In this document: positions 3,910 through 64,000 of the stretch, one piece after another
How positions within the stretch are numbered: position 1 is the stretch's first letter
How the letters are laid out: every line of letters begins with the position of its first letter
Program-made: the position numbers and the translations under genes
NCBI GenBank assembly: GCA_016214995.1
Contig: JACRML010000058.1
Span: 4,194-68,193, forward strand
DNA: 64,000 bases
Direction: 5' to 3'
Origin: Deltaproteobacteria bacterium
Lineage (GTDB): Bacteria > Desulfobacterota > GWC2-55-46 > UBA9637
The notes under the pieces: model-generated
Seen by the model: the letters and a program-made list of their open reading frames with translations, nothing else
What the model was told of the DNA's origin: nothing
The model's database searches: none

Positions 3910-4030
3910 AAATTCCAAATCTCAAATCCCAGGTTCCAAATAATATTCAATAACCAAAAATCAAAAAGCTGATTGTTGCGATTTGGTTATTGGAATTTAT
4001 TTGGTTACTGGTGTTTGGTAATCGGAATTT
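3910..4030. repeat. Imperfect 120-bp palindrome built of TTCCAAA/AACCAAA short-period units
   Basis: The left arm (AAATTCC...CCAAATAATATTCAATAACCAAAAATC) matches the reverse complement of the right arm (GATTTGGTTATTGGAATTTATTTGG...GGAATTT). It lies in the gspK-gspJ junction. Confidence 0.7.
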
Positions 4031-4041
4031 TTATCCTCCCT

Positions 4042-4698
4042 CTACCTTATTCTCGTTCTGACAATTGTTGAAAACTCCCTTACCTCACCCCTGTCTTTAA
4101 CGGCAATTACAACCCTCACAGCCTCAGGGAGTTTCTTTTCAAGGGAACTGTCCCATGTCTTTGCCCAATCCTTTCCGTTAAAATAGCTAACCTCAAAGCC
4201 TTCCACACCTTCAACAACCTCGGCACTGAGTCCATCTTTTCCGTCTCCGGTATATGGATTCCATGTCTTCTTATATAGCGTCAAAACCTCATCTGTATTT
4301 TCTTGAACAGAATACTGTACGGCTAAGAGGTCGCTGACCGGGTAGCCGCCCCGTATGAGAGGATATGTAAAGGCAGTAAATAGAACTTCACTAAAAGGTT
4401 TATTGTAGCTACCCTTTTTCCCACCGGCAAAGATGGTTCTGGAATTATTGTCTTTAAAAAAAGAGGACTGGATTTCCAGAGAAAAGATATCCAAAAACCG
4501 CCTGATTTCCCTCGTCCGCTCCAGTTCATTTTCTATCTTTTCCTGACTGCTCAGTACTGAAAAAAAACTTCCATAAAGGGCTGTGAGTACCACAGACATT
4601 ATTGAAACAGCAATCAGTAGTTCTAATAAAGTAAAACCATTATTAGCGGAATTTGAAATTTGAAATTTGAAATTTGAAATTTTATTTTTTAGTCTCAT
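4042..4698 (-). CDS. gspJ: Type II secretion minor pseudopilin J
   Basis: It carries the prepilin motif NNG|FTLLELLIAVSIMSVVL. Two ATG candidates exist, at 4722 and 4698. Either way the leader (21 or 29 aa) contains the heptamer-array peptide ISNFKFQISN. Confidence 0.65.
   Translation of the reverse strand: MRLKNKISNFKFQISNSANNGFTLLELLIAVSIMSVVLTALYGSFFSVLSSQEKIENELERTREIRRFLDIFSLEIQSSFFKDNNSRTIFAGGKKGSYNKPFSEVLFTAFTYPLIRGGYPVSDLLAVQYSVQENTDEVLTLYKKTWNPYTGDGKDGLSAEVVEGVEGFEVSYFNGKDWAKTWDSSLEKKLPEAVRVVIAVKDRGEVREFSTIVRTRIR
4651..4683. repeat. (ATTTGAA)n heptamer tandem array, about 4.5 units
   Basis: Reads ATTTGAAATTTGAAATTTGAAATTTGAAATTT. The same array recurs at 34501-34533. Confidence 0.9.
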
Positions 4699-5092
4699 AT
4701 GTTTCCAGGGTAATCCTTTCATCCCTTCCCCATGATACAGAAAGGTATACCTTTTTAAGGCCGCTTATCTGTGTATCTTCTGCATCATACTTCCATCGGA
4801 AATTTTCAAATTTAGGCGCAAAATCCCCTTCCTTGTCCTGAAGAATGCCGCCTGTCTTCATCTCCTCCAGTTTTTCCCTTGCCAGCATGGTCGCAATGGT
4901 CATGTCCCTGTCCCTTTCTATAATGCTTAAATGATAATTGAGGCTGCCTAAAATCGTTATAATCACTCCGGATAAAAGCGCAAGCGACACCATTATCTCC
5001 AGCAATGTAAAACCTTTTTCGGATTTCGGATCTGCCTGCGAAGTTATGACCCGAAAAATGCATTTAGTTTTTATTTTTCGGGTCAAACGCAA
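4682..5092 (-). CDS. gspI: Type II secretion minor pseudopilin I
   Basis: It carries the prepilin motif SEKG|FTLLEIMVSLALLSGVI. The ORF is open to the ATG at 5263 (83-aa leader) and reads through a structured insert. The nearest alternative starts are TTG at 5092 and 5086. The start is uncertain. Confidence 0.6.
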   Translation of the reverse strand: MRLTRKIKTKCIFRVITSQADPKSEKGFTLLEIMVSLALLSGVIITILGSLNYHLSIIERDRDMTIATMLAREKLEEMKTGGILQDKEGDFAPKFENFRWKYDAEDTQISGLKKVYLSVSWGRDERITLETYETKK

Positions 5093-6362: not shown

Positions 6363-6469
6363 TATTTTTAAACCTCCTTTTCTACACTTACTTATTGCCT
6401 TTATAGTGAATAACTTAAATAAGTTGACATGGTATTAAGAAATCTTAAATTCTAACCCGGACAAGCCGG

Positions 6470-6617
6470 AAATGACAAATGTTAAAGCTCAAAGTTCAAA
6501 TGAAATCCAAATTTCAAATTACTAAATTTTTGACATTGGGATTTTGACATTCATTTGACATTTGGATTTTGAAATTTGAACTTTATTTGTAATTTGGATT
6601 TTGTCATTTGACATTTC
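6470..6617. repeat. A/T-rich short-period arrays (TTTGACA/TTTGAAA units) in both orientations
   Basis: GAAATGACAAATG, AGTTCAAATG and AAATCCAAATT recur as reverse complements on the right side. TTTGACAT repeats three times in the centre. It lies in the gspG-gspF intergenic region. Confidence 0.65.
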
Positions 6618-13905: not shown

Positions 13906-14518
13906 AAAAGCCTTCAGACGCAGAAACTATTTTATTAAAAAGAAATTCCAGTTGGATTTCTCTGCCAAATTTCTCGTAATTATAGTCATAGAGGCTGTTT
14001 TGGCAATCGGACTTTTTCTGTATCTGTCAAAAGGCACTTTGACAACCGGCTACTCTGGCTCAGAGCTTAAGGTGGCCAGCACATATAATTTTTTCCTCCC
14101 CATGCTGCTTTTCTCAAATATCATAATAGTCGGCGTAACCGCCATTGCAGGCATAGTTGTCCTTGTATTTTTATCGCACAGGATAGCCGGGCCGTTATAC
14201 CGCTTTGAAAATGTTTTAAGCGAAATCGGCAGCGGCAACCTGACCTACAGATTCAAATTAAGAGAAACAGACCAGTTTGTGGAATTGGAGAACAGCATAA
14301 ATGTACTGGCCACTGCTATTGATAAAAACATGGGCGGGGTAAAATACAGGGTTGCTGAAATTTCAAGGTTTCTTGCTGAGATAAAAACTGCCGCCGCCCA
14401 AAATCCCAATGCACCTTCTAACAAAGAACTGGACCGCCTCTTACAGGAGACAGCTAAAAAACTTCTTGAACTTGAGGAGGCTGTAAATTATTTCAAAACC
14501 TCAGGCCGTGAGAGTTGA
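13889..14518 (+). CDS. Two-TM HAMP-domain membrane protein
   Basis: Two TM helices are followed by a HAMP-like segment (HRIAGPLYRFENVLSEIGSGNLTYRFKLRETDQFVELENSINVLA). It overlaps the upstream gene by 17 nt. The ATG at 13895 is an alternative start. Confidence 0.55.
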   Translation: MPMSNKKAFRRRNYFIKKKFQLDFSAKFLVIIVIEAVLAIGLFLYLSKGTLTTGYSGSELKVASTYNFFLPMLLFSNIIIVGVTAIAGIVVLVFLSHRIAGPLYRFENVLSEIGSGNLTYRFKLRETDQFVELENSINVLATAIDKNMGGVKYRVAEISRFLAEIKTAAAQNPNAPSNKELDRLLQETAKKLLELEEAVNYFKTSGRES

Positions 14519-14537
14519 GGATTTAAGGAGCGCAAAG

Positions 14538-15119
14538 TTGAGGAGCTTATCTTTTATCTCCACCCTCTGTCTCCACTCTCTTTTTTTTATTCTTTTCATC
14601 GCCTCCTGCCCGCCTTACCTTGCCGCACAAGACTTGCCCTCTGCACAAACAGGGGAGTGGGCAAATCCATACAACACGCAATATGCGAGCATATACTATT
14701 TAAACGACAGTGACCTCAACACCTTTACCCGAAGTATCGGCAAAGGATTTACATTTTTCGGCGAGAGCCAGGAAAAGAATCCTATGCTGGCAAAAAACAG
14801 GGTTGATGCTATTGTTGAAAGGGTAAGACGTCTCCTTGATATGTATCCGCCAAATCTTCATTTTAAGGTATATATTTATCCCACTTACAGGGAATTAGGA
14901 TTAAAATATCTCGGTACAGGCAATTTTGGAAAATCCCCCATAGCGTTTTACAATCACAAAACTGCGGCTATCTATATTTCGCTACCTGACATCACCGGCG
15001 GCGTCTTAGCTCATGAAATAGCCCATACTGTGATAAATTTCTTCTTTGCTGTGCCGCCGCCCACAGCCATGCAGGAGATACTTGCGCAATATGTAGACAG
15101 GCACTTGTGGGAAGAATAG
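14538..15119 (+). CDS. Putative zinc-metallopeptidase-like lipoprotein (HExxH)
   Basis: It has an HEIAH motif (GGVLAHEIAHTVINF). I place the start at TTG 14538, with AAGGAG 7 nt upstream, giving MRSLSFISTLCLHSLFFILFIASC with lipobox IASC. The ORF is open to a GTG at 14508. Confidence 0.45.
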   Translation: MRSLSFISTLCLHSLFFILFIASCPPYLAAQDLPSAQTGEWANPYNTQYASIYYLNDSDLNTFTRSIGKGFTFFGESQEKNPMLAKNRVDAIVERVRRLLDMYPPNLHFKVYIYPTYRELGLKYLGTGNFGKSPIAFYNHKTAAIYISLPDITGGVLAHEIAHTVINFFFAVPPPTAMQEILAQYVDRHLWEE

Positions 15120-15940: not shown

Positions 15941-16684
15941 GGACACATCCCTTTTATTCTTGACATCAAGATAAGCCAATGTTATGAAAGTTGCCATGCC
16001 AAGGATAGCAAGAATAGTAGGCTTAGGATACCCACATCATGTAATACAACGCGGGAATAACAGAGAAAAGGCCTTTCTTGACGATGAAGATTTTAAGAAG
16101 TATCTCTCCCTGCTTGAAAAATACTTATCTAATAAGGAAGTTGTATTGCAGGGTTACTGCCTCATGACTAACCACGTTCATTTGCTTTTGAAACCCCTCA
16201 AAGAACAATCGTTATACAAGATGATACAGGGGATAACCCTTTGCTACACGCAGTATTTTAACAAAAAATACAGCCGAACTGGTCGTTTGTGGGAATGCAG
16301 ATACCATTCCTGCATAGTTGATGCAGAACGGTATTTATGGGCAGTAAGCCGGTATATAGAAAGAAATCCAGTAAGGGCAAAAATGGTTGAAAACCCAGAA
16401 GACTACTGCTATTCCAGCGCAAGGTCACACATTTTGGGAGAAGCAAATCAATTAGTTGGAGAACCGTTGTTTGGTGAAAGAGAGTTATCTCAATATAAGT
16501 TATTTGTCAAACGTAAGGAAAAAGAAGAAGAACTGGAAGATATAAGAAAAAAAACAAGGTTAGGAAAGCCCCTTGGAGGTGAAACATTTTTAAGATTACT
16601 TTCAGAAAAATTAGGTCGAACACTTACATTTAGGCCAAAGGGCAGGCCAGCAAAAAAAGAGGGTGGTTAATGGGATGTGTCCCT
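15939..16684 (+). mobile_element. RAYT (IS200/IS605-superfamily Y1 transposase) unit bounded by 13-bp inverted mini-hairpins
   Basis: AGGGACACATCCC at 15939-15951 has its exact reverse complement, GGGATGTGTCCCT, at 16672-16684. Each can fold as a GGGA-CACA-TCCC hairpin. Confidence 0.7.
15984..16670 (+). CDS. REP-associated tyrosine transposase (RAYT / TnpA-REP)
   Basis: It has the HUH motif in MTNHVHLLLKP and a catalytic-Tyr region (SRYIERNPVRAKMV). N-terminal IQRGNNRE and a size of 228 aa fit RAYT. Confidence 0.8.
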   Translation: MKVAMPRIARIVGLGYPHHVIQRGNNREKAFLDDEDFKKYLSLLEKYLSNKEVVLQGYCLMTNHVHLLLKPLKEQSLYKMIQGITLCYTQYFNKKYSRTGRLWECRYHSCIVDAERYLWAVSRYIERNPVRAKMVENPEDYCYSSARSHILGEANQLVGEPLFGERELSQYKLFVKRKEKEEELEDIRKKTRLGKPLGGETFLRLLSEKLGRTLTFRPKGRPAKKEGG

Positions 16685-34680: not shown

Positions 34681-34751
34681 CAGGTTATGGGCAATAGGCT
34701 ATAGGCCTTCCGATGTCTTTCCTATTACCTATTGCCCTTGCCTATTGCCTG
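34681..34751. repeat. Palindrome of GGCAATAGG-type units between surA-like and pdxA
   Basis: CAGGTTATGGGCAATAGGCTATAGGCC pairs with CCTATTACCTATTGCCCTTGCCTATTGCCTG. Confidence 0.7.
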
Positions 34752-34755
34752 TTTT

Positions 34756-35727
34756 TTACAGTCTCACCTCTATATATGCCTTTTTCATTACTTCTTCCAG
34801 CCAAAGTTTGTATCTTTCATCTATAACCTTCTGAAAGATGGTATTCCTAATCTCATCCTCAACCTCTGAAAGAGGCCTTGCCGCCGCCCCCTGCTTATCT
34901 ATCAGCTGTATTATGTGAAATCCTGTAGAGGTTTTGATTACATTGCTTATCTCGCCAGTCTTTAATCCAGTTGCAGCCCGCTCTATTGCTGCATCCATCT
35001 CACCTGCTTTAATATAGCCAAGGTCGCCGCCTTCTTTTGCATTAGGCCCTTGCGAATACTCCTTCGCAAGCCTTACAAAATCTTCTCCACCCCGGGCTGC
35101 GGCAAGGATATTATCTGCCTTCTTCTCTATATCTTTTCTTTTATCCTGTTCACTGGAGAGCAGTGATATTATTCGCAGCCTATGCGTTACGGGGCCAGAG
35201 AATTTACCCTGATTCTGCCTGTAATAGGCTTCTATATCTTCATTAGATATTTTTGCATTTGAGCGAAATTCTTTGTTTATAAACTTTACCTGCCTGATTT
35301 GGTCCTTAAGCTGCTCCCGGTATTCCTTGAAGGTAAGGCCGTTTCTTGCCAGAGCGCTTAAAAGTTCTTGCTGGCTTACATTGTTTTGCCTTTTTACATC
35401 TTCAATAGCATTGTCTATCTCTTTTTCGCTGATGGTGATTCCTGCTTTATTTGACGCCTGCTCAACTAATTTTTTCTCAATAAGCTGATCCAACACCTTG
35501 CTCTTTGTCTCTATAATCTTTTTCCGCTTATCTTTATCATTGCCCTTTATATCTTCCAAGCCAGCAGTGGCAACATTCAATTCAGACAGGGTAATAGCGC
35601 TGTCGTTTACAACAGCCACAACCCTGTCTACAATCTCAGCGTGAGCAGGGAAAGACAGTAAGCAGTAAGCAGTAAGCAGCAGCAATTTAAATCGTAAATC
35701 GTAAATCGTAAATCGTAAATCAATCAC
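34756..35727 (-). CDS. surA: SurA-like periplasmic chaperone / parvulin PPIase
   Basis: It has a SurA N-domain and a parvulin motif (GGDLGYIKAGEM...STGFHIIQL). Its signal peptide is encoded by heptamer arrays. Confidence 0.75.
   Translation of the reverse strand: MIDLRFTIYDLRFKLLLLTAYCLLSFPAHAEIVDRVVAVVNDSAITLSELNVATAGLEDIKGNDKDKRKKIIETKSKVLDQLIEKKLVEQASNKAGITISEKEIDNAIEDVKRQNNVSQQELLSALARNGLTFKEYREQLKDQIRQVKFINKEFRSNAKISNEDIEAYYRQNQGKFSGPVTHRLRIISLLSSEQDKRKDIEKKADNILAAARGGEDFVRLAKEYSQGPNAKEGGDLGYIKAGEMDAAIERAATGLKTGEISNVIKTSTGFHIIQLIDKQGAAARPLSEVEDEIRNTIFQKVIDERYKLWLEEVMKKAYIEVRL
35656..35721. repeat. Two adjacent heptamer arrays, (CAGTAAG)3 and (AAATCGT)4-5
   Basis: It reads CAGTAAGCAGTAAGCAGTAAGCAGCAGC...AAATCGTAAATCGTAAATCGTAAATCGTAAATC. 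It covers the first ~24 codons of the surA-like gene. Confidence 0.9.
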
Positions 35728-36767
35728 AACAACTCCTCCTTAACCTCTATCCTTGCCCTTTGTTTTAATTCTTGCATCCATACCTGAAATTCTGCATCGC
35801 TTTTTTCTTTTTTCAGCTTATTTATTATCTGGTTTTTTACCTCTGAAAATTTCAGATCCTTTGCACCTCTTTTCTCTTCAACCCTGAAAATATGATAACC
35901 ATACGCAGTTTTTACAACCTGACTCAGCTTGTTTACAGGGAGAGAAAATACTACATCCTCAAACTCCTTTGGCATAATGCCTTTGCTAAAAAAACCCAGG
36001 TCTCCGCCCTTTTTGCCCTCGGGGCCTAAAGAAACCTCTTCAGCTAGTTTTGCGAAATTTTCTCCTTTTTTTAATCTTTCCCTTATTTGATTGGCCTCAT
36101 CTTCCGTCTTCACTACAATCATCAGCGCCCTTATCTGCTCCTCAACTTTATAATCCGCTATATGCTCTTTATAATATTTTCTGGCATCATTTTCTTTCAC
36201 GGTAAGCTTAGAGGTAATAGCCTTATCTATAACCTTCTTAATCAATAATTTCTTTTTAAGCTCTTCCTTCCATTTTTCCATGCTTCCGTACCTGCTCAGA
36301 ATAGTTGGTTCAAACGCATCTCCGGCGTATTCTCTTTTAATTTCTTCCAGTTCTCGTGAAAGTTCGTCAGCATCAACATTCAATGCCACCTTCTTTGCCT
36401 CTTCTAAAAGCAACTCTTCTTCAAGAAATTGATTAACAAGGGCCATCTTAAGATTTCGCAGCTCTTCATCTTTTATCTCTGCGGCTGCTTCGTCTTCTAT
36501 AAATAACTTTTTAAAGGTATCCTGAAATTCTCCGCGTGTAATTTCCCTGTCATTTATTTTTATGATAATCTCACTGACAGACGGAAGGCTTTTTTCTTCT
36601 TCCTTCTTTTTACAACCTGCAGTGAGCAGGAAAAAAAGAGACAAGAGGCAGAAGGCAAGAGGCAAGAGGCGAAATCTTATTTTGCTTCTGACTTCTTGTT
36701 TCCGGCTTCTTGCTTCCGATTTTTGTTTCTCCGTCATCTGTTTTCTCTCATTTATTTTGTATTTCAA
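35724..36767 (-). CDS. Parvulin-type PPIase lipoprotein (PrsA/PpiD-like)
   Basis: It has a lipoprotein-type signal ending LLTAGC. It has the parvulin motif GGDLGFFSKGIMPKEFE...AYGYHIFRV. Confidence 0.75.
   Translation of the reverse strand: MKYKINERKQMTEKQKSEARSRKQEVRSKIRFRLLPLAFCLLSLFFLLTAGCKKKEEEKSLPSVSEIIIKINDREITRGEFQDTFKKLFIEDEAAAEIKDEELRNLKMALVNQFLEEELLLEEAKKVALNVDADELSRELEEIKREYAGDAFEPTILSRYGSMEKWKEELKKKLLIKKVIDKAITSKLTVKENDARKYYKEHIADYKVEEQIRALMIVVKTEDEANQIRERLKKGENFAKLAEEVSLGPEGKKGGDLGFFSKGIMPKEFEDVVFSLPVNKLSQVVKTAYGYHIFRVEEKRGAKDLKFSEVKNQIINKLKKEKSDAEFQVWMQELKQRARIEVKEELL
36637..36717. repeat. Purine-arm / pyrimidine-arm heptamer palindrome (GCAAGAG / CTTCTTG units)
   Basis: AGAGACAAGAGGCAGAAGGCAAGAGGCAAGAGGC faces TTGCTTCTGACTTCTTGTTTCCGGCTTCTTGCTTCC. 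It belongs to the same family as 58541-58629. Confidence 0.85.
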
Positions 36768-47211: not shown

Positions 47212-48073
47212 GGACAAACATAACCTCATAAGTGGCATAGACATAGTTGCAGGTTGCAAGTTGCAAGTCTTGAGTCTTGAATCTATCTTTATAGATTTCT
47301 GCCATTGTCTTTAACAAAGAGCCTCTGCCAAGACTTTTATCACCATCTTTGAATGGATTGCCTGCGCCAATGGATTTCATGGTTTTTAACAATGCCCACA
47401 TATCAGGATAGGTCTTCATCATCTTCGTTGTTTCAATGGATATGTTTTTAAAGCCCACACTTTCAAGAACGGATTGGATGGCCTTCTTTTCTGAAAAATC
47501 CATAAATGGCGGCAGGCCATTTTTATTAAATTTGGCCAATGTCTTGGCATAACAATACCTTAATTCCTTCAATGTCTCTGGCCCAAGGGTAGAAAACATG
47601 AATATGCCGCCGGGTCTCAAAATCCGGTGCGCCTCTTTAAAAGACCCTTCTAAATTGCCAATCCACTGGTATGTAAGATTTGAAGCTGCGATATCAAAGG
47701 TATCATTCTTGCAAGGTAATATTTCTCCGTCAGTGGTTATAAGATGTATTTTTTTATCCCTTGCAACTTGTAACTTGCAACTCGCAACTTTGAGCATATC
47801 ATGGCTGATATCACAGCCGAATATATCTGCATCCGGAAATTTATCTGCAAGACCGTATGAAAGAAAGCCTGTGCCGCAACCGATGTCAATAATAGTGGTG
47901 AGTGATGAGTGGTGAGTGTTAAGTGGTAAGACAAAACTATTCAATAGTTCATCTGCTACTTCTTTTTGGAAAAGAGCAATGGTGTCGTACTTGATTGCGG
48001 CTTTTGAGAACGATGCTCGTATCTTGTCTTTTAATTGCCGACCCCTGAATGCTGGTTGCTGATAGCTGCTCAT
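47198..48073 (-). CDS. bioC: Malonyl-ACP O-methyltransferase
   Basis: It has the SAM-binding motif IIDIGCGTGFLS and a BioC-like N-terminus (IRASFSKAAIKYD). It sits inside the bio operon. It carries three heptamer arrays. Confidence 0.8.
   Translation of the reverse strand: MSSYQQPAFRGRQLKDKIRASFSKAAIKYDTIALFQKEVADELLNSFVLPLNTHHSSLTTIIDIGCGTGFLSYGLADKFPDADIFGCDISHDMLKVASCKLQVARDKKIHLITTDGEILPCKNDTFDIAASNLTYQWIGNLEGSFKEAHRILRPGGIFMFSTLGPETLKELRYCYAKTLAKFNKNGLPPFMDFSEKKAIQSVLESVGFKNISIETTKMMKTYPDMWALLKTMKSIGAGNPFKDGDKSLGRGSLLKTMAEIYKDRFKTQDLQLATCNYVYATYEVMFVHAEK
47246..47280. repeat. Heptamer array (GTTGCAA/GTCTTGA units) in the bioC 3' region
   Basis: It reads GTTGCAGGTTGCAAGTTGCAAGTCTTGAGTCTTGA. 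It encodes KTQDLQLATCN. Confidence 0.85.
47759..47789. repeat. Heptamer array (CTTGCAA units) inside bioC
   Basis: It reads CTTGCAACTTGTAACTTGCAACTCGCAACTT. It encodes VASCKLQVAR. Confidence 0.85.
47896..47930. repeat. Heptamer array (GGTGAGT units) inside bioC
   Basis: It reads GGTGAGTGATGAGTGGTGAGTGTTAAGTGGTAAG. It encodes LPLNTHHSSLT directly N-terminal to the SAM-binding loop. Confidence 0.85.
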
Positions 48074-48951
48074 AATGTCTCTATGAAACCTTTTACAATT
48101 TTGTTGAACTCTTTCGGCCTTGTCAAAAACGGGGCATGGCCTGCGTCTTTGAATATCTCAAGCCTTGCATCAGGCAGATTCTTAGCAAGATACCTTCCGG
48201 TATCAACAGGGCAGACATTATCTTTTTCGCCGTGCATGATAAGAGCAGGAATCTTTATATCAGGAATAATATCCTTTAAATCAATTGCCAAAAGCGCCTC
48301 AAGGGATGTAACAGCGCTATCACAAAAGGGTTTCGTGCGAGGTTTTTTATAAAGCTCTATAAACCATCTTGCGTCAGGGCTTAAAAGTTCATCCTCTGTA
48401 AAATTCAATGGATAAAACCTCTCCATTGTTCCTGCAAAGTTCTTCTTCATATCCTTGAGCATCCGTTTTGCCACACCTGCAGATTGCCCAAATAGAAAAT
48501 CTCTTTTTGCAGTAAAACATGGCGATACTCCGATGAGCACTAGTCCTTTAAAGCAGCCGGGCATTTTTGCTGCTACTTCTAAAAGGGTCTGACCGCCCAG
48601 AGACCAGCCGATGCCGATAAAACCAGTGAACTGTGAATCGTGAACTGTAAACTGTAAAAGCTTTTCAACGGCAGGCTTAAGTGTTGGTTCAAACCATACA
48701 TCTGTTTCGCCGTGTCCGGGAAGGTCTATGGTAATGACCTGATGATTTTTTGAAAATTCTTCTAACTGATATTTCCATACCCTTGAATCTGTTGCCCAGC
48801 CGTGGAGGAAGAGAAGTGCGGAATCGGGGAAAGAGCGACAGGGAGAATCGGAGAAAGAAAGAATTCTCTGTTTCCCCGTTTCCCCGTTTCCCCGTTTCTC
48901 TATTTCCCGCTGTCGCTCTTTAATTTCTGTAGCTTTAAGCAAAATTAGCAA
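48070..48951 (-). CDS. bioH: Pimeloyl-ACP methyl ester esterase (alpha/beta hydrolase, BioH-like)
   Basis: It has LLFLHGWATDS and the nucleophile elbow GIGWSLGG. It lies between bioF and bioC. An N-terminal extension of about 45 aa contains a 100-bp palindrome. Confidence 0.65.
   Translation of the reverse strand: MLILLKATEIKERQREIEKRGNGETGKQRILSFSDSPCRSFPDSALLFLHGWATDSRVWKYQLEEFSKNHQVITIDLPGHGETDVWFEPTLKPAVEKLLQFTVHDSQFTGFIGIGWSLGGQTLLEVAAKMPGCFKGLVLIGVSPCFTAKRDFLFGQSAGVAKRMLKDMKKNFAGTMERFYPLNFTEDELLSPDARWFIELYKKPRTKPFCDSAVTSLEALLAIDLKDIIPDIKIPALIMHGEKDNVCPVDTGRYLAKNLPDARLEIFKDAGHAPFLTRPKEFNKIVKGFIETL
48626..48658. repeat. Heptamer array (GTGAACT units) inside bioH
   Basis: It reads GTGAACTGTGAATCGTGAACTGTAAACTGTAAA. 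It encodes LQFTVHDSQFT just before GWSLGG. Confidence 0.85.
48821..48921. repeat. Imperfect 100-bp palindrome centred on GAATTC, containing (GTTTCCC)4
   Basis: AAAGAGCGACAG (48830-48841) pairs with CTGTCGCTCTTT (48910-48921). The right arm reads GTTTCCCCGTTTCCCCGTTTCCCCGTTTCTC. It is read in frame as part of the bioH N-terminus. Confidence 0.8.
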
Positions 48952-50137
48952 CCGTTTCCTTTATGGTTTCCAGTGCATATTCCAAATCGTCCCATGAGTG
49001 GTTTGCCATCAGGGTAATTCTCAGCCTGCTTGTATTGTCTGGAACTGTTGGCGGTCTTATGGCCTGAACAAATATCCCTTTATCCAGAAGGTTCTTGCTT
49101 ATCTGAACTGCCTTGTCAGCCTTGCCAATCAATACGGGAATAATCTGTGTTTCTGAATTCATAATATCAAGGCCTGCGTTTTTAAGGCCGTCCCTAAAGA
49201 ACTTAACCCTATCCCATAAATTCTGTCTTAACTGCGGTTCATTTTCTATTATATCTATTGCAGCAATGCTCGCTGCGCATACAGACGGAGGAAGGCTTGT
49301 GGTATAGATAAAAGAGCGGGCTTTATTTATGAGATAGTCTATAAGTTTTTTACTGCCCGCTGCATAAGCTCCGAAACAGCCCAGCGCCTTTCCGAGTGTT
49401 CCCATCTGGATTATGCTTGTCCCGTTATGTCTTAAAACGGGATTTGGATTATCTATGCCAAAATGCTCTAATGTTCCTTTGCCATTGCTGCCAAGAACCC
49501 CTGTTGCATGGGCATCGTCAACCATGAGCATACAACCATATCTATCTGCCAGTTCTGAAAGTTCTTTTAAGGGGGCGATGTCTCCGTCCATGCTGAAAAT
49601 GCCGTCGGTAATGATGAGTTTGGAGTTTGGAGTTCGGAGTTCGGAGTTCTTTTTCAGGAGACCTTCCAGCGCATTTACATCGCCATGTGGATACCGCTTA
49701 ACCTCTGCCCTGCTCAGGATGCAGGCATCCACAATTGAGGCATGGTTTAATTTATCTGAAAATATTAAATCGCCTCTGCCAGCAAGGGCTGTAATAATTC
49801 CGATATTTGCATGATAGCCTGAATTGAATACAAGTGCTGCCTCTGTGCCTTTGAATCTGGCAAGCCTTTGTTCAAGCTCATTATGAGGCTCCATATTGCC
49901 TGATACAAGTCTTGATGCGCCAGAGCCAAAACCATATTTTTCAATGGCCAAGATTGCAGCCTCTTTTATTTTTGGATGGTTGGCAAGTCCGAGATAGTTG
50001 TTAGAGCAGAGGAGGATAACATCTTTACCATCTATATTTACCCTCGGCTCCTGCTTTCTTTCTATAAGACGCAGATTGCGATAGAGACCGGCATTTTTGA
50101 GCCGAGATAGTTCTTTGTCTATAAGATTTGTCAACAT
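48935..50137 (-). CDS. bioF: 8-amino-7-oxononanoate synthase
   Basis: It has PLP-enzyme motifs (TDGIFSMDGDIAPL, DDAHATGVLG, GTLGKALG). Length is 400 aa. Confidence 0.9.
   Translation of the reverse strand: MLTNLIDKELSRLKNAGLYRNLRLIERKQEPRVNIDGKDVILLCSNNYLGLANHPKIKEAAILAIEKYGFGSGASRLVSGNMEPHNELEQRLARFKGTEAALVFNSGYHANIGIITALAGRGDLIFSDKLNHASIVDACILSRAEVKRYPHGDVNALEGLLKKNSELRTPNSKLIITDGIFSMDGDIAPLKELSELADRYGCMLMVDDAHATGVLGSNGKGTLEHFGIDNPNPVLRHNGTSIIQMGTLGKALGCFGAYAAGSKKLIDYLINKARSFIYTTSLPPSVCAASIAAIDIIENEPQLRQNLWDRVKFFRDGLKNAGLDIMNSETQIIPVLIGKADKAVQISKNLLDKGIFVQAIRPPTVPDNTSRLRITLMANHSWDDLEYALETIKETVANFA
49627..49660. repeat. Heptamer array (GAGTTTG/GAGTTCG units) inside bioF
   Basis: It reads GAGTTTGGAGTTTGGAGTTCGGAGTTCGGAGTTC. 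It encodes NSELRTPNSK just before the TDGIFSMDGD motif. Confidence 0.85.
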
Positions 50138-53307: not shown

Positions 53308-53477
53308 TAAATACAGTAGGCAGTATGCAGTAAGGAGTATGCAGTAAAAAAACAGAAGATGATAGGTTGAGAAATTGAGAAGTTAAGAATTTTCACCCTC
53401 TTGTCGTTTCAGTTTCTTATCCTCTTAACTTCTTTTCCTCTTTTCTGCCTACTGCTTACTGTCTACTGCCTACTTTT
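53308..53477. terminator. Nested 170-bp palindrome of two heptamer families between convergent genes
   Basis: The outer arms are CAGTAGG CAGTATG CAGTAAG GAGTATG CAGTAAA, facing CTGCCTA CTGCTTA CTGTCTA CTGCCTA. The inner arms are GGTTGAGAAATTGAGAAGTTAAGAA, facing TTCTTATCCTCTTAACTTCTTTTCCTC. The right arm ends in TTTTT. Confidence 0.6.
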
Positions 53478-54050: not shown

Positions 54051-54905
54051 CTAATTCTCTAAATTTGCCAACATCTTAAGTTTCTTTATATTCTTAAGCT
54101 TTGTTACAGCCTCTTTTTCTATCTGCCGTACCCTTTCTCTGCTTACACAAAGCCTGTCTCCTATCTCCTGCAGAGTTAGGGAGGGTTCTTTCATCATCCT
54201 GTTTTCTATGACATATCGTTCTTTCTTGTTCAGAGTTGAAAGGGCATTTAATATCTCGTCCTTCACAACGTTTTGTTCCTGAACAGCCAGGGCAGCATCC
54301 TCCGGGTTAAGTGACGTATCGGGAAGCATATCAAGATATGTAGTTCCTTCCTCTCCCTGATTGGTCGAAACTTGATTATCCAACGATAGGTCGCGATATT
54401 CGGCATCCTCTCCCTTTTCCCAGTCACCTGTCACCAGATTCCCGGCGCCAGTTTCAAACCTTGCGTCTGATGACTTGTGACTTGTGTCTTGTAACTTGCG
54501 ACTCTCAAGCCGATAAAAAAGTTTCTTTTTAAGGGCAGCAACACCTTTATTAACAAGATTCCAATTCTTTAGTATAAACGCCTGAATATGAGACCTTATC
54601 CACCAAACTGCATAAGTGATAAGACGGCAGCCTTTGAAAGGGTCGAATTTCTTTACCGCCTTCATAAGCCCGATATTCCCCTCTTGTATAAGGTCAGCCA
54701 GCCTGAACCCATACTCCCTGTACTCCATTGCAATCTTCACAACAAATCTTAGATTTGAGGTTATAAGCTTATGGGCAGCATCAAGGTTGTTTTGTTTTCT
54801 GAAACGGACAGCAAGCTCAAACTCCTCTTTCATTGATAGAAGCGGGAACCTGTTTGCCTGAATAAGATATGATTGAATAGAATTTAATAGTACAATCTGT
54901 GTCAT
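54051..54905 (-). CDS. rpoH: RpoH-like (sigma-32 type) RNA polymerase sigma factor
   Basis: It reads LRFVVKIAMEYREYGFRLADLIQEGNIGLMKAVKKFDP and YAVWWIRSHIQAFILKNW. It has an RpoH-box-like LKKKLFYRLE, and region 4.2 reads LQEIGDRLCVSRERVRQIEKEA. Confidence 0.75.
   Translation of the reverse strand: MTQIVLLNSIQSYLIQANRFPLLSMKEEFELAVRFRKQNNLDAAHKLITSNLRFVVKIAMEYREYGFRLADLIQEGNIGLMKAVKKFDPFKGCRLITYAVWWIRSHIQAFILKNWNLVNKGVAALKKKLFYRLESRKLQDTSHKSSDARFETGAGNLVTGDWEKGEDAEYRDLSLDNQVSTNQGEEGTTYLDMLPDTSLNPEDAALAVQEQNVVKDEILNALSTLNKKERYVIENRMMKEPSLTLQEIGDRLCVSRERVRQIEKEAVTKLKNIKKLKMLANLEN
54460..54504. repeat. Heptamer array (CTTGTGA units) inside the rpoH-like gene
   Basis: It reads CTTGCGTCTGATGACTTGTGACTTGTGTCTTGTAACTTGCGACTC. 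It encodes ESRKLQDTSHKSSDAR in the region 2-3 linker. Confidence 0.85.
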
Positions 54906-57000: not shown

Positions 57001-58647
57001 TCATCTTAATAATTGTGTAACTTTCTTTTGACCGCCCACATCTTCAAACGGGAAATCCTTCCTATAAGGCACAACAGCAAGGCTTATATTGCCTATTTCT
57101 TTTATCTTGGTTAAAAGCCCTATCACTTCCTGATCTGGCAGGGGTTGCGACGTGTTCCAATCAATTGTCTGAAATTTCATCAGAACCTTTTGCGGCTCAC
57201 CGACCAGCCTGACCGCCTCGCTGGTCATATTTTGTATCAGGCTCTGTATCTCATAAGGTTCTTTTTTTAACTCATCATGCATCTGTCGATGATAGGCCAT
57301 TACCGCATAATAATCAAACCACTGCTTTACAGCCTCATCAAGGCTCTGGGAAAGCCATGCCATTGCGTAAGGAGGGTTTGAGATACTCTCATACATCAGA
57401 TTTATTACAAATTTTGCATTCGGGTTTTTCTTTTTTACAACTGCTTTAATTCTCATTGCAACCTGAAGCAGCCTTTTATTTTTCCACGCTGCCCATCTCC
57501 AGAACTCCGGAGCATATTGAGGGTTCAAGGGTTCAAGGGTTACAGAGTTCAAATTCTGCCCCATGTTATTATAAAGTTCAGCCGGTATAAGCCTCTTGTC
57601 GTTGTCCTTTTTATAAAACGCATCACTGTAAGAACCAAAACCTTCATTATGCTTTAAAACAAGGTCATCCTGAAAAAGTACGCCATCGATAGGATATTCC
57701 GCAAGGTCATTAAAGAGTTTTTCCAGATGATAAACAGCCGCTTCGTTAAAAAGGTCAAGTCCTTTGCAGGAAACAATATTTTTTGTATGAAAGTCGTACG
57801 CCTTGCAGCCAAGGTCTTTTCTATGTTCCAGGCCATAGTCAGCATATCTCGTTGTCATCCACGCAAATACCTTTAATCCTTTTTTATGCGCCATATCAAG
57901 AACAGTCCCAAGTATATCCTCAACTACCGGAGATTCTTTTGTTTTAAAATAGACCCCAACCTTGCTCCTCGGTTTTATAAATTGATAAAATCTATCTTCC
58001 TTATTATGGAAAACCCTTAAAATAATAGTATCTATGCCTGCCCCCTTTAACCTATCCAGTTCCTTATCAACTTCCTTATAGTTTTTCCCTTCAAACAAGG
58101 CAATCTGAACAGTCCGTAATGGTGACGAAAAACCTAGAGGTTGAGAGGTTAAGAGGTTGGATTGAACCTTTACTACCGGAAGTTTAGGCGCAGCAACAAA
58201 CTCTGCCTCTCCCTGCTTAAAACCTGCGGGGACATGTTTCAATTTCGCTTTAGCAATTTCCAATTTTAAAGATGCTTCTCTTTTAAACTCATTATCGGGA
58301 AAGTTCTTAATAAGCTGCTGCCATTGACCAACAGCCTCTTGATACATGGATGCATTGAGACACGCATCACCAATCATGTATTGGGCATGAGGAATAATCT
58401 GGCTACCCGGAAAATAATCTATTACCCTGCCGAACTCCCTGGCAGCAACCGTATAATGGCCCTGTTTATAAAGAAACATGGCGTAGTTGAACTGGTCTTT
58501 GTCTGTGAGGAAGGGACGATTCCCCTGAGCGTTTAGGGAAGATGCAAGAAGCAAGAGGCAAGAGGCAAGAGATAAGAGGTAAGAGACAAGATTTTTTTCT
58601 TGCTTCTTGCTTCGGACTTCTTGCTTCTTATTTCTAAAACAACACAT
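57001..58647 (-). CDS. Exported TPR/YbgF-like plus glycoside-hydrolase-like (PgaB C-terminal-like) protein
   Basis: Its signal peptide ends SLNA|QG. A TPR-like segment reads YAMFLYKQGHYTVAAREFGRVIDYFPGS. A TIM-barrel-like region reads IDTIILRVFHN...KGLKVFAWMTTRY. The functional call is weak. Confidence 0.4.
   Translation of the reverse strand: MCCFRNKKQEVRSKKQEKNLVSYLLSLASCLLLLASSLNAQGNRPFLTDKDQFNYAMFLYKQGHYTVAAREFGRVIDYFPGSQIIPHAQYMIGDACLNASMYQEAVGQWQQLIKNFPDNEFKREASLKLEIAKAKLKHVPAGFKQGEAEFVAAPKLPVVKVQSNLLTSQPLGFSSPLRTVQIALFEGKNYKEVDKELDRLKGAGIDTIILRVFHNKEDRFYQFIKPRSKVGVYFKTKESPVVEDILGTVLDMAHKKGLKVFAWMTTRYADYGLEHRKDLGCKAYDFHTKNIVSCKGLDLFNEAAVYHLEKLFNDLAEYPIDGVLFQDDLVLKHNEGFGSYSDAFYKKDNDKRLIPAELYNNMGQNLNSVTLEPLNPQYAPEFWRWAAWKNKRLLQVAMRIKAVVKKKNPNAKFVINLMYESISNPPYAMAWLSQSLDEAVKQWFDYYAVMAYHRQMHDELKKEPYEIQSLIQNMTSEAVRLVGEPQKVLMKFQTIDWNTSQPLPDQEVIGLLTKIKEIGNISLAVVPYRKDFPFEDVGGQKKVTQLLR
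57520..57556. repeat. Heptamer array (GGGTTCA units), intragenic
   Basis: It reads GAGGGTTCAAGGGTTCAAGGGTTACAGAGTTCAAATTC. It encodes NSVTLEPLNPQ. Confidence 0.85.
58133..58168. repeat. Heptamer array (GAGGTTR units), intragenic
   Basis: It reads CCTAGAGGTTGAGAGGTTAAGAGGTTGGATTGAACC. It encodes QSNLLTSQPLG. Confidence 0.85.
58541..58629. repeat. Purine-arm / pyrimidine-arm heptamer palindrome (GCAAGAR / CTTCTTG units)
   Basis: GATGCAAGAAGCAAGAGGCAAGAGGCAAGAGATAAGAGGTAAGAGACAAG, then ATTTTTT, faces TCTTGCTTCTTGCTTCGGACTTCTTGCTTCTT. It covers codons 7-36 of the 57001-58647 gene. Confidence 0.9.
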
Positions 58648-59989
58648 CCATCATCTCCTTAACCGATTTTACCCCAATCATCTCAAGCTTACCTTTGCCT
58701 TTTATCTTCGATAGATTATCCTTTGGCAGGATGCACTTATCAAAGCCCAATTTCTCCGCCTCGTTTATGCGTGGCTCTACCTGGCTTATACCTCTCACTT
58801 CGCCTGCCAGTCCCACTTCTCCGAACACCACAGTCTTCTGCGGTATGGCTTTGTCAAGAAAATTTGAGGCAAGCGAGGCTATAATGCCGAGGTCTATGGC
58901 AGGCTCTTCAAGTCTTATGCCGCCGGTTACCTTGAGGAATATGTCGTGGTTTTGAATGTTAAGCCCGCCTTTCTTTTCCAGCACTGCGGTAAGCAGAGCA
59001 ACCCTGTTGTAGTCTATTCCAACTACCGTTCTTTTGGGAATACCGAATATGGTGGGGCAGACCAAGGATTGAATCTCCACCAGAATCGGTCTTGTGCCTT
59101 CAAGGCTTGATACCACAACAGAACCGGAGGCATTCTGCGGCCTTTCTGCAAGGAACAGGGCGGATGGATTAGCAACCTCTTCAAGCCCCTTATCATGCAT
59201 CTCAAATACCCCTATTTCCATGACAGAGCCGTAGCGATTTTTTACAGCCCGGAGTATTCTAAACTGATGTCCCCTTTCGCCCTCAAAATAAAGAACAGTA
59301 TCTACCATATGTTCAAGCACCCTGGGCCCAGCGATAGAACCGTCCTTGGTCACATGCCCTACCAGAAAAAGTGGCATATCCATGCCCTTTGCATTAAATA
59401 TCAACTGAGATGATGTCTCCCGAACCTGGCTTACACTGCCAGGCGATGATTCAAGCGCCTGTGTATAAATGGTTTGGATGGAATCTATGATAAGAATCTC
59501 CGGCTTAAGTCTCTTTACGCTATCCAGTATCCTCTCCAGGGTATTCTCTGCATATATGAAGAGGTTTTCTGATGTTACGCCAAGTCTTTCACCCCTTATC
59601 TTTGTCTGCTTTGGAGACTCTTCGCCAGAAACATATAAAACCTTTTCTCCATTGCCAGCAAGCATCGCCATAGCCTGAAGCAGTAATGTTGATTTGCCAA
59701 TACCCGGATCTCCGCCTATAAGTATTGCAGAACCCAAAACAATTCCACCGCCAAGAACCCTGTCCAACTCCCCGATGCCTGTTTTAAACCTGTCCTCCTC
59801 TTTTACCTCAAGGGTTGTGATGGGCTGCGGCGAAGAACCTCCTTCAAAGACCTGAAGCCCCCTCCTCTCCTCAAATGCCTTTTCCTCAACAAAGGAATTC
59901 CATTGATTGCAGTCAGGACATTTGCCCAACCACTTTGGCAATTGATAGCCGCAGGATTGGCAGGTATATATGGTTCTGGTTTTAGCCAT
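58634..59989 (-). CDS. radA: DNA repair protein RadA/Sms
   Basis: It has a zinc-finger (CQSCGYQLPKWLGKCPDC), a Walker A motif (GGDPGIGKSTL), KNRYG, and a Lon-like C-domain. The ATG at 59989 is preferred over 60049. Confidence 0.9.
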   Translation of the reverse strand: MAKTRTIYTCQSCGYQLPKWLGKCPDCNQWNSFVEEKAFEERRGLQVFEGGSSPQPITTLEVKEEDRFKTGIGELDRVLGGGIVLGSAILIGGDPGIGKSTLLLQAMAMLAGNGEKVLYVSGEESPKQTKIRGERLGVTSENLFIYAENTLERILDSVKRLKPEILIIDSIQTIYTQALESSPGSVSQVRETSSQLIFNAKGMDMPLFLVGHVTKDGSIAGPRVLEHMVDTVLYFEGERGHQFRILRAVKNRYGSVMEIGVFEMHDKGLEEVANPSALFLAERPQNASGSVVVSSLEGTRPILVEIQSLVCPTIFGIPKRTVVGIDYNRVALLTAVLEKKGGLNIQNHDIFLKVTGGIRLEEPAIDLGIIASLASNFLDKAIPQKTVVFGEVGLAGEVRGISQVEPRINEAEKLGFDKCILPKDNLSKIKGKGKLEMIGVKSVKEMMDVLF

Positions 59990-60007: not shown

Positions 60008-60074
60008 ACAGTGAATGGTATTTAGTGAATAGTAGTCGGCCGGCAGCAACTATTCACTGTTCACTATTTACTGT
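60008..60074. repeat. Palindrome of AGTGAAT/ATTCACT heptamer units
   Basis: ACAGTGAATGGTATTTAGTGAATAGTAGTCGGCC faces GGCAGCAACTATTCACTGTTCACTATTTACTGT. It lies in the divergent radA / HEAT-gene intergenic region. Confidence 0.8.
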
Positions 60075-63170: not shown

Positions 63171-64000
63171 TTAAATAACAGGTTTGTCTCTGAAATAATC
63201 CACTGTCTTTCTAATTCCATGCTCCAGAGAAACTTGCGGCGACCAGCCAAGTATTTTGTTTGCCTTTGTAAAATTAATCACGCTTCTTTTTTGTTCTCCA
63301 CTTTTATGAGGCCCATATTTTTCCTTAAATCCAGCACCTGTACTATTAACAAGTTCTTTAAATAATTGTTTTATAGTAGTCTCTTTGCCGGTGCCTATAT
63401 TAAAAATAGTTGGGAGTTGAGAGTTATGGGTTGAGAGTTGAGATAAGGCCAATACATTGGCCTTGGCCACATCTCCCACATATACAAAATCTCTGGTTTG
63501 CATTCCATCACCGTTTATCACAGGCTGTTCACCTCTAAGAAGTTTCTGAGCAAAAATCGCCACAACCCCTGCCTCACCATGAGGAGCTTGCCTTGGCCCG
63601 TAGACATTAGCATACCTCAAGATAGTAGAATTCAAGCCGTATACCTGACCATAGAAAAAAAGATAATGCTCAACAGATAGTTTCGCTGCGCCGTATGGGC
63701 TTAAAGGATTTGTAGGGTGGGATTCTGTAGCGGGAAATTCTTCCTGCTCCCCATATATTGCTCCGCCTGTAGAGGCAAATATAATCTTTTTTACGCCATA
63801 TTGAATACAGTTTTGCAGCAGGTTGAGCGAACCTAATATATTGACCCTGGCGTCAAGTACCGGATTTGCCACTGATTTTCGCACATCTATCTGCGCAGCA
63901 TGATGGTTTACGACATCAAATCTGCATTCCTTGAATATATCCCTTACACCTTCATCGCATATGTCAGCCTTGAAAAGTTTGGCCTTGGGACCGATATTCT
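63171..64000 (-). CDS. NAD-dependent epimerase/dehydratase (GalE-like); 5' end lies beyond the window
   Basis: It has the catalytic motif SPYGAAKLSVEHY and reads YANVYGPRQ. The frame remains open upstream of the first in-window Met (63884) to the window edge (..FDVVNHHAAQIDVRKSV). Confidence 0.8.
   Translation of the reverse strand, partial: NIGPKAKLFKADICDEGVRDIFKECRFDVVNHHAAQIDVRKSVANPVLDARVNILGSLNLLQNCIQYGVKKIIFASTGGAIYGEQEEFPATESHPTNPLSPYGAAKLSVEHYLFFYGQVYGLNSTILRYANVYGPRQAPHGEAGVVAIFAQKLLRGEQPVINGDGMQTRDFVYVGDVAKANVLALSQLSTHNSQLPTIFNIGTGKETTIKQLFKELVNSTGAGFKEKYGPHKSGEQKRSVINFTKANKILGWSPQVSLEHGIRKTVDYFRDKPVI
63409..63447. repeat. Heptamer array (GAGTTGR units) inside the epimerase gene
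   Basis: It reads GTTGGGAGTTGAGAGTTATGGGTTGAGAGTTGAGATAAG. It encodes LSQLSTHNSQLPT. Confidence 0.85.

Follow-up and report, generated by a model that had tools for sequence, protein, structure and literature searches.

In the 64-kb window analysed here (64,000 nucleotides (nt) of contig JACRML010000058.1 from a Deltaproteobacteria bacterium), tandem arrays of 7-nt units occupy the 5′ ends of three genes, encoding a 548-residue TPR/GHL13 protein (57001..58647, minus strand; arrays within 58541-58629), a parvulin lipoprotein and a SurA-like protein. Judging from sequence comparison, these arrays are very probably translated and form the n-regions and h-regions of signal peptides, both Sec-type (signal peptidase I) and lipoprotein (signal peptidase II), in a low-GC (41-46%) clade of groundwater Deltaproteobacteria. 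Actual export and cleavage of these peptides, as well as the mutational process behind the arrays, are matters that we infer.

A heptamer array is read in all three frames in turn and yields a peptide with a period of seven residues, whichever frame is entered. Each base of the unit becomes the middle base of exactly one codon; hence, the number of A residues in the unit sets the number of hydrophilic residues, and the number of T residues sets that of hydrophobic ones. The unit AAGAAGC encodes KKQEARS, and its complement encodes LLASCFL; the complementary CTCTTGC arm of the gene yields Leu, Ala, Ser and Cys. Pure purine and pure pyrimidine units contain no stops in any of the six frames. The AAGAAGC-type unit of the TPR/GHL13 gene is free of stops in all six frames as well, and all signal-peptide units are free of them in the sense direction.

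Anatomy of the signal peptides

In the TPR/GHL13 gene, Tandem Repeats Finder (TRF) locates AGGCAAG (8.1 copies, 58535-58591) and TTCTTGC (4.7 copies, 58597-58629), with a match of 76-82% within the tracts. The two tracts are inverted repeats, and an inverted-repeat search pairs 58539-58575 with 58593-58629 as 37-nt arms of 78% complementarity. The self-identity of the signal-peptide DNA is 0.65 at period 7 versus 0.23-0.38 at other periods; the array is real and far above chance. On the sense (minus) strand, with the arrays in parentheses and the predicted cleavage site as an arrow, the 5′ part reads GTTAAGGAGATGATGG ATG TGT TGT TTT AGA AAT (AAGAAGC AAGAAGT CCGAAGC AAGAAGC AAGAA) AAAAATC, and the 3′ part reads (TTGTCTC TTACCTC TTATCTC TTGCCTC TTGCCTC TTGCTTC TTGCATC TT) CC CTA AAC GCT↓CAG GGG. 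The N-terminus translates as MCCFRNKKQEVRSKKQEKNLVSYLLSLASCLLLLASSLNA↓QG, and the two arms give exactly the peptides that the original prediction had assigned to them.

The n-region (residues 1-19) contains seven Lys/Arg and two Glu residues, resulting in a net charge of +5. The h-region (LVSYLLSLASCLLLLASSL) consists of 19 uncharged, Leu-rich residues with a maximum 11-residue hydropathy of 2.66, and the c-region places small or neutral residues at positions -3 and -1 (L-N-A↓Q). With its start codon and ribosome-binding site, charged n-region, h-region and c-region, the N-terminus is, as read from sequence, of the Sec type cleaved by signal peptidase I. The radA stop TAG (58634-58636) is overlapped by the open reading frame (ORF). 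Besides the ATG, an in-frame start ahead of the mature part exists only at a TTG, nine codons upstream of the cleavage site, and the next in-frame ATG is codon 56, past any signal peptide. A twin-arginine translocation (Tat) signal was rejected for the TPR/GHL13, parvulin and SurA-like proteins, as none of the three N-termini contains the RR of the motif S/T-R-R-x-F-L-K. Octamers at 57520-57552 are also translated, inside the mature part of the TPR/GHL13 gene.

In the parvulin lipoprotein, the array units are complementary at six of seven positions and translate as first described (36636-36716). The lipobox LL-T-A-G-C is encoded at 36612-36626, with its Cys codon at 36612-36614. L(F/T)AGC is conserved in the related loci L005, L007 and L019, and distant relatives possess ordinary lipoboxes. 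In L019 and L007, the h-region is built from TGTATTC ×5 instead, and L007 carries an extra nested palindrome within an N-terminus of 58 residues. A lipobox following an uncharged h-region identifies this N-terminus, at the level of sequence, as that of a lipoprotein processed by signal peptidase II.

The SurA-like gene contains two perfect sense arrays, GATTTAC ×4.9 (35688-35721) and CTTACTG ×3.4 (35656-35679), both with 100% identity in TRF; the corresponding plus-strand units are TAAATCG ×4.9 and CAGTAAG ×3.4. These arrays, listed from the start as a related case, are real, but they are neither mutually complementary (3/7) nor of the purine/pyrimidine type. The peptide VIDLRFTIYDLRFKLLLLTAYCLLSFPAHA↓EIVDRVVAVVN has an n-region charge of only +1 and the cleavage motif PAHA↓E, and its mature start coincides with the start of the Pfam SurA_N match at residue 33. 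Relatives keep the Shine-Dalgarno (SD) sequence, the start codon and xHA↓E(I/V)(V/I)DR(I/V)VAVVN, and their arrays differ: GATTTAC ×5 in the window and L005, GATTTAC ×2 in L008 (three units, or 21 nt, fewer and in frame), AATTTCA ×6 in L019, AGTTTCA ×7 with CTTGCAT ×4 in L006, and ACTGGCC in L007. The GC-richer SurA relatives have plain signal peptides.

The fourth proposed case, an HExxH lipoprotein, does not hold as a heptamer array. Its self-identity is 0.38 at period 7 and 0.45 at period 3, and TRF reports only a 13-mer ×1.9. The supposed GAGTTGAGG units correspond to the 3′ end of the preceding gene together with the AAGGAG SD sequence, 7 nt before TTG 14538. This TTG is the likely start by sequence, giving an ordinary signal peptide, MRSLSFISTLCLHSLFFILFIASC. 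In three of the four genes, the arrays sit between a conserved SD/start and a conserved signal peptidase or lipobox site, and the claim that no downstream start is usable stands. The features are collected in Table 1.

Table 1. Positions of the array-encoded signal peptides and of the fourth proposed case in the 64-kb window.
Feature	Position	Strand	Remarks
SD sequence AAGGAG	58655..58660	-	7 nt 5′ of the ATG, within the radA 3′ end; read from the sequence
ATG start of the 548-residue TPR/GHL13 protein	58645..58647	-	overlaps the radA end
Purine-rich heptamer array, sense AAGAAGC-like, ~4.7 copies	58597..58629	-	encodes the n-region KKQEVRSKKQE; TRF, inverted-repeat arm, translation
A-run loop GAAAAAAAT between the arms	58591..58598	-	encodes E-K-N right before the h-region
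Pyrimidine-rich heptamer array, sense CTCTTGC-like, ~8 copies	58539..58590	-	inverted complement of the first arm; h-region LVSYLLSLASCLLLLAS
Non-repeat c-region (S)SLNA	58528..58538	-	predicted signal peptidase I cleavage after 58528; mature start QGNRPFLTDKDQ
Mature TPR + GHL13/GHL10 (PgaB-C-terminal-like) protein	57001..58527	-	Pfam; export expected by homology
Parvulin/SurA_N lipoprotein signal peptide	36612..36737	-	ATG 36737; purine array 36682-36716; pyrimidine array 36636-36670; lipobox LTAG↓C
SurA-like signal peptide	35638..35727	-	GTG 35727 overlapping the parvulin stop, after SD AAGGAGG; gene 34756..35727
HExxH lipoprotein (fourth case)	14508..14600	+	upstream gene end (stop 14516-14518), SD AAGGAG 14525-14530, TTG 14538, predicted ordinary lipoprotein signal peptide

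Allele turnover and the reading frame

The nearest orthologues of the TPR/GHL13 protein (63-80% identity) come from metagenome-assembled genomes (MAGs) of uncultured groundwater Deltaproteobacteria/Thermodesulfobacteriota and from metagenomes, and their DNA was compared at 20 loci. The N-termini begin with M-x-C/F-F-R/K and end with xxA↓QE(S/N)RPFLTDKDQ, and between these ends lie differing 7-residue periodic peptides. The c-region is V/T-x-A↓Q-E, followed by the conserved mature start xxA↓QESRPFLTDKDQ. At the other end, the SD-ATG block GTTAAGGAGATGATGGATG is kept in nearly every complete locus, with a divergent form (GTCAGGGAGGCGATGGATG) in L033 and L035; L038 is cut and L039 is rearranged at this block. 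In L003 and L029, an insertion of ~880 nt parts radA from the TPR/GHL13 gene, and the SD-ATG block is duplicated and retained. This insertion lies 3′ of the radA stop (L003 2190-3130) and is also found in L004, L027, L029, L030 and L036. In the L003 type, the block TTAAGGAGATGATGGATGT..TTTTAGAAGTCAG is present at both ends; hence, the SD sequence, the start codon and the first repeat units accompany the downstream gene.

The slot from the radA stop to the c-region holds at least 10 array alleles among the orthologues. The window and L040 combine the first arm AAGAAGC with the second arm CTCTTGC, L001 combines AAGATTC with AACTTTC, and L032 and L038 combine AAGATTC/AGTTTCA with CTTGCAA. The first arm CAGTTAC is paired with ACTGTTC in L002, AGTCAGG with TTACTGC in L031, and GGGTCAA with CCCTTGC in L041; L003 and L028 share the first arm GTGGTCA and possess the second arms CTGTTCA and CTGACCA, respectively. 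The first arm of L029 is degenerate. Counted from the conserved ATG, the length of every sequenced allele is divisible by three, with the exception of L033, where a new ATG has been acquired. The frame is kept in six of seven independent allele families (p=0.007) and in ~17 of 18 alleles once protein-only alleles are added (p=1e-7). Distant orthologues (up to 53% identity) contain ordinary signal peptides of 30-33 residues, and GC-richer relatives (45-55% amino-acid identity) have ordinary ones at the same place with essentially no period-7 arrays. Conserved ends and upkeep of the frame across alleles are what a translated sequence selected for frame and coarse physico-chemical character would show, and not what an untranslated spacer would. 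The proposed comparison of orthologue signal-peptide DNA thus favours the coding interpretation, and the signal peptides of essential periplasmic proteins would here turn over by cassette-like replacement, not by point mutation.

The arrays might instead be non-coding intercistronic hairpins of a repetitive extragenic palindromic (REP)-like, terminator-like or mRNA-stabilising kind, with the long ORF an artefact of stop-free repeats and the protein starting downstream. Open frames are cheap where purine/pyrimidine units cannot hold stops, the TPR/GHL13 segment folds significantly better than its shuffles, and similar palindromic arrays occupy clearly non-coding sites (53314-53474 with its T-run, 60008-60074 in the radA 5′ untranslated region (UTR), and 6469-6617). 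This explanation is nevertheless hardly credible, given the conserved SD-ATG 5′ of the arrays, the conserved cleavage motif directly after them and the multiple-of-three length of nearly every allele. Furthermore, no downstream start leaves a signal peptide, which all distant relatives in the family possess. A scan of 58200-59000 contains no intrinsic terminator (GC-rich stem-loop plus U-run) and one promoter match at chance level, and no Rfam family is matched at gathering thresholds anywhere in the 64-kb window. The intrinsic terminator was rejected on this basis and because the hairpin is inside the ORF that overlaps radA, where a terminator would silence the TPR/GHL13 gene.

A second explanation treats the arrays as contingency loci, in which slipped-strand mispairing of the 7-nt unit switches the exported protein on and off, as with CTCTT in Neisseria opa (PMC3745409), and signal-peptide coding is secondary. 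The unit length is indivisible by three, and the arrays fall within the stretch from the start codon to the cleavage site; perfect tracts exist (SurA, 4.9 copies with 100% identity; L003 arm 2), units are homogenised within arrays, implying frequent slippage, and relatives differ by whole units. The only copy-number difference met is that of SurA, 5 versus 2 copies of GATTTAC, and its three units stay in frame, as expected of slippage under frame selection. Switching is quite improbable, however, as most tracts are imperfect and their copy numbers low (4-8), and the genes are housekeeping ones (SurA, periplasmic peptidyl-prolyl isomerase, PgaB-like hydrolase). Among 16 contigs from independent assemblies, six allele groups occur, identical in their arrays within each group and without any copy-number or frameshift variant. 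Arrays are equally abundant in cytoplasmic enzymes, where switching would be lethal. If slippage is frequent, contingency-locus behaviour would be extended to free-living groundwater bacteria.

Two seemingly truncated N-termini were rejected as out-of-frame "off" variants: P0003 comes from a contig cut within the array and is in frame, and P0005 from a short contig that is rearranged or chimeric at the repeat. Inside the arrays, metagenome contigs stop or are rearranged (L038 1-133, L039 1-240); the arrays break short-read assemblies, leaving truncated or wrong N-termini in public protein sets, as in P0003 and P0005. For annotators, the repeat-filled 5′ ends in these MAGs probably represent real coding sequence, at which assemblies break (L038) and gene callers sometimes choose internal starts (P0003, P0019). 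The arrays as such were rejected as an assembly artefact, since identical alleles are found again in independent assemblies.

The protein P0002 of L040, 72% identical to the window in its mature part, has the allele of the window, and P0001 of L001, 80% identical, has another. The DNA of L040 is 89% identical to that of the window over a 200-column alignment that runs from the radA end through the signal peptide into the first mature codons, and its h-region differs by Y->F, S->F and A->V. This discordance between allele type and mature-protein identity suggests, from sequence, recombination of 5′ cassettes or chimeric contigs.

Polarity of the palindromes and the mRNA hairpin

Codons of the sense and antisense strands are complementary in hydropathy (middle A versus middle U); hence, where an A-rich array is followed by its reverse complement, a hydrophilic peptide precedes a hydrophobic one. 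The relation belongs to the genetic code itself rather than to any genetic element, and we know of no description of its use in making an n-region and an h-region out of a DNA palindrome. It explains how a heptamer array, which is independent of frame, gives the n-h architecture when arranged as a palindrome. The arrays would thereby provide a natural example of a functional-looking targeting peptide arising from non-genic simple-sequence DNA.

Among adjacent pairs of arrays with at least 5/7 unit complementarity, the purine/A-rich arm is 5′ and the pyrimidine/T-rich arm 3′ in 16 of 17. The polarity also exists outside coding and signal-peptide DNA, in ~11 of 12 pairs, one of which is marginal and some of which are possibly orthologous (our own tally); an earlier count of non-signal-peptide pairs was 10 of 11 (p=0.006). 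An inverted repeat is identical from both strands, so this polarity is intrinsic, and either orientation within an ORF gives a hydrophilic and then a hydrophobic segment. The idea of the array pair as an intrinsic generator of signal-peptide-like N-termini gains support from this, as pairs are purine-first nearly always and also outside coding DNA. The further notion that a purine arm supplies the positive charge of the n-region applies to the TPR/GHL13 gene, but n-arm units elsewhere are often neither purine-rich nor positively charged. The loops between the arms are often A-runs, read as Lys right before the h-region.

The mRNA of the window allele folds with a minimum free energy of -40.5 kcal/mol (z -3.2; none of 200 shuffles), and the signal-peptide segment alone has z -5.9. 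The outer stem begins with the G of AUG, and the radA stop lies in the 5′ flank of the stem; the core stem begins a few codons past the AUG, and the SD sequence sits in a loop. Among the other alleles, L028 has z -7.8, and L002, L003 and L033 have z ~-2 (L003 -2.0). The values are around zero in L001 (z +0.6), L029 (z +0.7) and L031 (z -0.6), and the parvulin and SurA regions show only weak folding, with z -1.5 and z -1.7, respectively. The predicted hairpin around the start codon is therefore confirmed as strong for the window and L028, but it is not a general feature of the alleles.

The primary role of the arrays could lie at the RNA level, with a big hairpin by the start codon tuning translation (for example, through dependence on termination at the radA stop) or protecting the mRNA, and the peptide incidental. 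The favourable folding of the window allele, of L028 and, to a lesser degree, of L002, L003 and L033 agrees with such a role, as does the placement of the outer stem and the radA stop. Hairpin propensity is absent in L001, L029 and L031, however, and the SurA arms are not complementary; in addition, G-U pairs favour neither strand consistently. L028 and L003 have arm 1 and the loop in common. In L028, each unit of arm 2 mirrors its counterpart in arm 1; in L003, arm 2 is homogenised to TTCACTG ×4, which makes it more hydrophobic (LLFTVHCSLFTVV versus LLITGHCSLTTVV) and less complementary. Arm-2 changes that raise hydrophobicity while cutting complementarity indicate that the peptide, not the hairpin, is under selection, and the three h-region differences between the window and L040 (Y->F, S->F and A->V) point the same way. 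A primary role of the RNA is accordingly very improbable, and the hairpin looks like a birth mark of young alleles rather than a conserved requirement.

If the arrays are translated as signal peptides, translation of the TPR/GHL13 gene would begin at the conserved SD-ATG overlapping the radA stop, and it may be coupled to termination there, opening the base of the hairpin. The purine arm would provide hydrophilic residues (K/Q/E/R/S), the A-run loop Lys, and the pyrimidine arm Leu/Ala/Ser/Cys, followed by the conserved c-region or lipobox. A process akin to slippage and specific to the clade may give rise to the arrays at gene boundaries. As n-regions and h-regions need only a coarse order of charge and then hydrophobicity, arrays at the 5′ boundaries of exported genes would be retained. 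Selection would filter unit composition and a total length divisible by three, while concerted evolution of a slippage type would keep rewriting the arrays.

The palindrome at 53314-53474 is nested and located between convergent genes, with outer heptamers CAGTAGG/CCTACTG and inner octamers TTGAGAAA/TCTTATCC. An A-run follows arm 1 and a T-run follows arm 2; the structure resembles an oversized bidirectional terminator made of arrays.

Period-7 arrays in the window and the clade

TRF reports 26 period-7 rows for the window, whereas 30 dinucleotide shuffles averaged 1.8 and never exceeded 6. Each of the 25 low-GC (41-47%) loci has 4-12 such arrays per 10 kb, and most GC-richer relatives have none. 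In total, 102 arrays comprise 56 canonical units, the commonest of which accounts for seven arrays; typical arrays have 4-5 copies and 30-35 nt. Of 25 arrays in the window, six lie in the three Sec/lipoprotein signal peptides, one in a GspJ-like prepilin leader, eight in intergenic DNA, 5′ UTRs or abutting the start codons of cytoplasmic genes (radA, bioA), and ten in coding sequence (CDS) bodies (PdxA, BioC, BioF, sigma-70 factor, epimerase, Mfd). The Sec signal-peptide DNA of nine exported proteins amounts to 783 nt (1.2% of the window) and holds 6/25 arrays (24%), an enrichment of ~19-fold (p=5e-7; p=0.002 by locus). Simultaneously, arrays are found in the N-terminal CDS of three of nine exported and none of 42 cytoplasmic proteins (Fisher p=0.004): they extend up to the start codon in cytoplasmic genes and through to the cleavage site in exported proteins. 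Signal peptides are the most array-dense compartment, not the sole one.

Several points weigh against the arrays as signal-peptide coding sequence. The enrichment was computed from a single 64-kb window and few gene families, and arrays build only about one third of the signal peptides there. Signal peptides contain a minority of the window's arrays, so the association reflects tolerance and selection, not specificity. The n-regions are unusually long (19-45 residues), and a net positive charge is missing from some n-arm peptides (TVTSYQL, WSVAGGQ); the array may therefore be a passenger in part. Furthermore, a hairpin of -36 to -40 kcal/mol right after the AUG of the TPR/GHL13 gene would normally depress initiation.

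Elsewhere in the clade, an SLT/LysM protein in L003 is a further exported example. GspD orthologues, checked for gain of arrays, are mostly ordinary, and P0129 (SIFCLLSSVFCLLI) looks array-built. A word-index search with the 42-residue signal peptide returned no candidates for other array-encoded N-termini, and an exhaustive HMMER search of 1.8 billion representatives with the same query gave 0 matches at E<=0.001; the query is too short and compositionally biased for these searches to measure genome-wide generality.

The nearest functional analogue, by comparison with published systems, is the opa CTCTT repeat, and the nearest structural ones are the heptanucleotide repeats of cyanobacteria and Beggiatoaceae. 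In Neisseria opa, CTCTT pentamers are repeated in the leader-peptide coding sequence (PMC3745409). Both systems translate a pyrimidine-rich short tandem repeat as the hydrophobic part of a signal peptide, and in both the unit is indivisible by three, so that the frame in which the mature protein is read depends on copy number. However, opa has a pentamer in long perfect tracts with demonstrated high-frequency on/off switching of pathogen surface adhesins, whereas the present arrays are heptamers of many sequences in short, often imperfect tracts. They often have an inverted purine partner encoding the n-region, and they belong to housekeeping periplasmic proteins of free-living bacteria, among which no out-of-frame variants were seen.

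The cyanobacterial heptanucleotide repeats (short tandemly repeated repetitive sequences, STRR) and the TAACTGA repeats of Beggiatoaceae, cyanobacteria and Bacteroidetes (MacGregor 2015, PMC4679880) are likewise few-copy 7-nt tandem arrays spread genome-wide. They are gathered at gene boundaries, often abut start codons, and occasionally lie in ORFs near protein ends; their distribution is similarly patchy and lineage-specific, without a known mechanism. The arrays 5′ of radA, bioA, gspG, gspK and the gene after bioF resemble the placement of TAACTGA just upstream of Beggiatoaceae start codons. TAACTGA, in contrast, is one dominant unit with forward-sense stops, almost all direct and intergenic, with one indirect repeat and no role in signal peptides reported (PMC4679880). 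Here, 56 units are found in 102 arrays, many pairs are inverted with a fixed purine-first polarity, and the arrays are routinely translated, in signal peptides and enzyme loops, and not mainly intergenic (8/25). A literature search found heptamer-repeat and opa papers, none of them describing palindromic heptamer arrays that encode signal peptides.

Intergenic palindromes of the REP and bacterial interspersed mosaic element (BIME) type and bidirectional intrinsic terminators follow the order A-tract, stem, T-tract. The likeness consists in the palindromy, the position at gene ends and the A-rich 5′ and T-rich 3′ sides, including the T-run of 53314-53474. REP elements, however, contain no tandem heptamers and are untranslated, and the arrays of the TPR/GHL13 gene differ from intrinsic terminators by lacking a GC-rich stem with a U-run and by lying inside an ORF.

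A lineage-specific repeat-generating process is indicated, one that rewrites the loops of cytoplasmic enzymes as well. It is conceivable, although doubtful, that repeats in this clade are actively written by a dedicated process that uses hairpin templates or an enzyme instead of ordinary slippage. Such a process would lay down arrays of ~30-35 nt, typically purine/A-first palindromes, at gene boundaries and, at constant length, in enzyme loops; signal peptides would then be created and swapped as cassettes, and alleles possibly exchanged between lineages.

In PdxA (33675..34694, minus strand), an array at 34493-34533 encodes 13 residues (LISNFKFQISNLN) in a cytoplasmic enzyme and stands in, without a change of length, for the ancestral LAKKLRLKxxSxx found in GC-richer relatives. 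Different but related units (AATTTCA, AAATTCA, AAATTCG, AATTTCC and GCAAATT) occupy precisely this site in six low-GC orthologues (including L005-L008 and L019); differing units at one site imply that substitutions are homogenised over all copies. Further translated arrays lie in a BioC-like methyltransferase (47760-47790 and 47894-47927), a BioF-like protein (49616-49649), the sigma-70 factor (54471-54503), the epimerase (63408-63443) and Mfd (39268-39299). Translation inside conserved sequence is unusual for repeat units not divisible by three.

In the GspJ-like pseudopilin (4042..4722, minus strand), TCAAATT ×4.7 at 4650-4682 encodes KISNFKFQISN ahead of the cleavage/methylation site G↓FTLLE, so a second class of cleaved N-terminal leader is array-built. 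Palindromic or direct arrays next to start codons or in 5′ UTRs (60008-60074, 47245-47284, 6469-6617, 3910-4030 and 48810-48921) stand beside cytoplasmic or type II secretion system genes (radA, bioA, gspG, gspK and the gene after bioF), with the purine/A-rich arm first in all. In addition, the window contains a solitary 228-residue homologue of IS200-like Y1 (HUH) transposases (15984..16670, plus strand; PF01797, E 2e-16), a type associated with REP palindromes.

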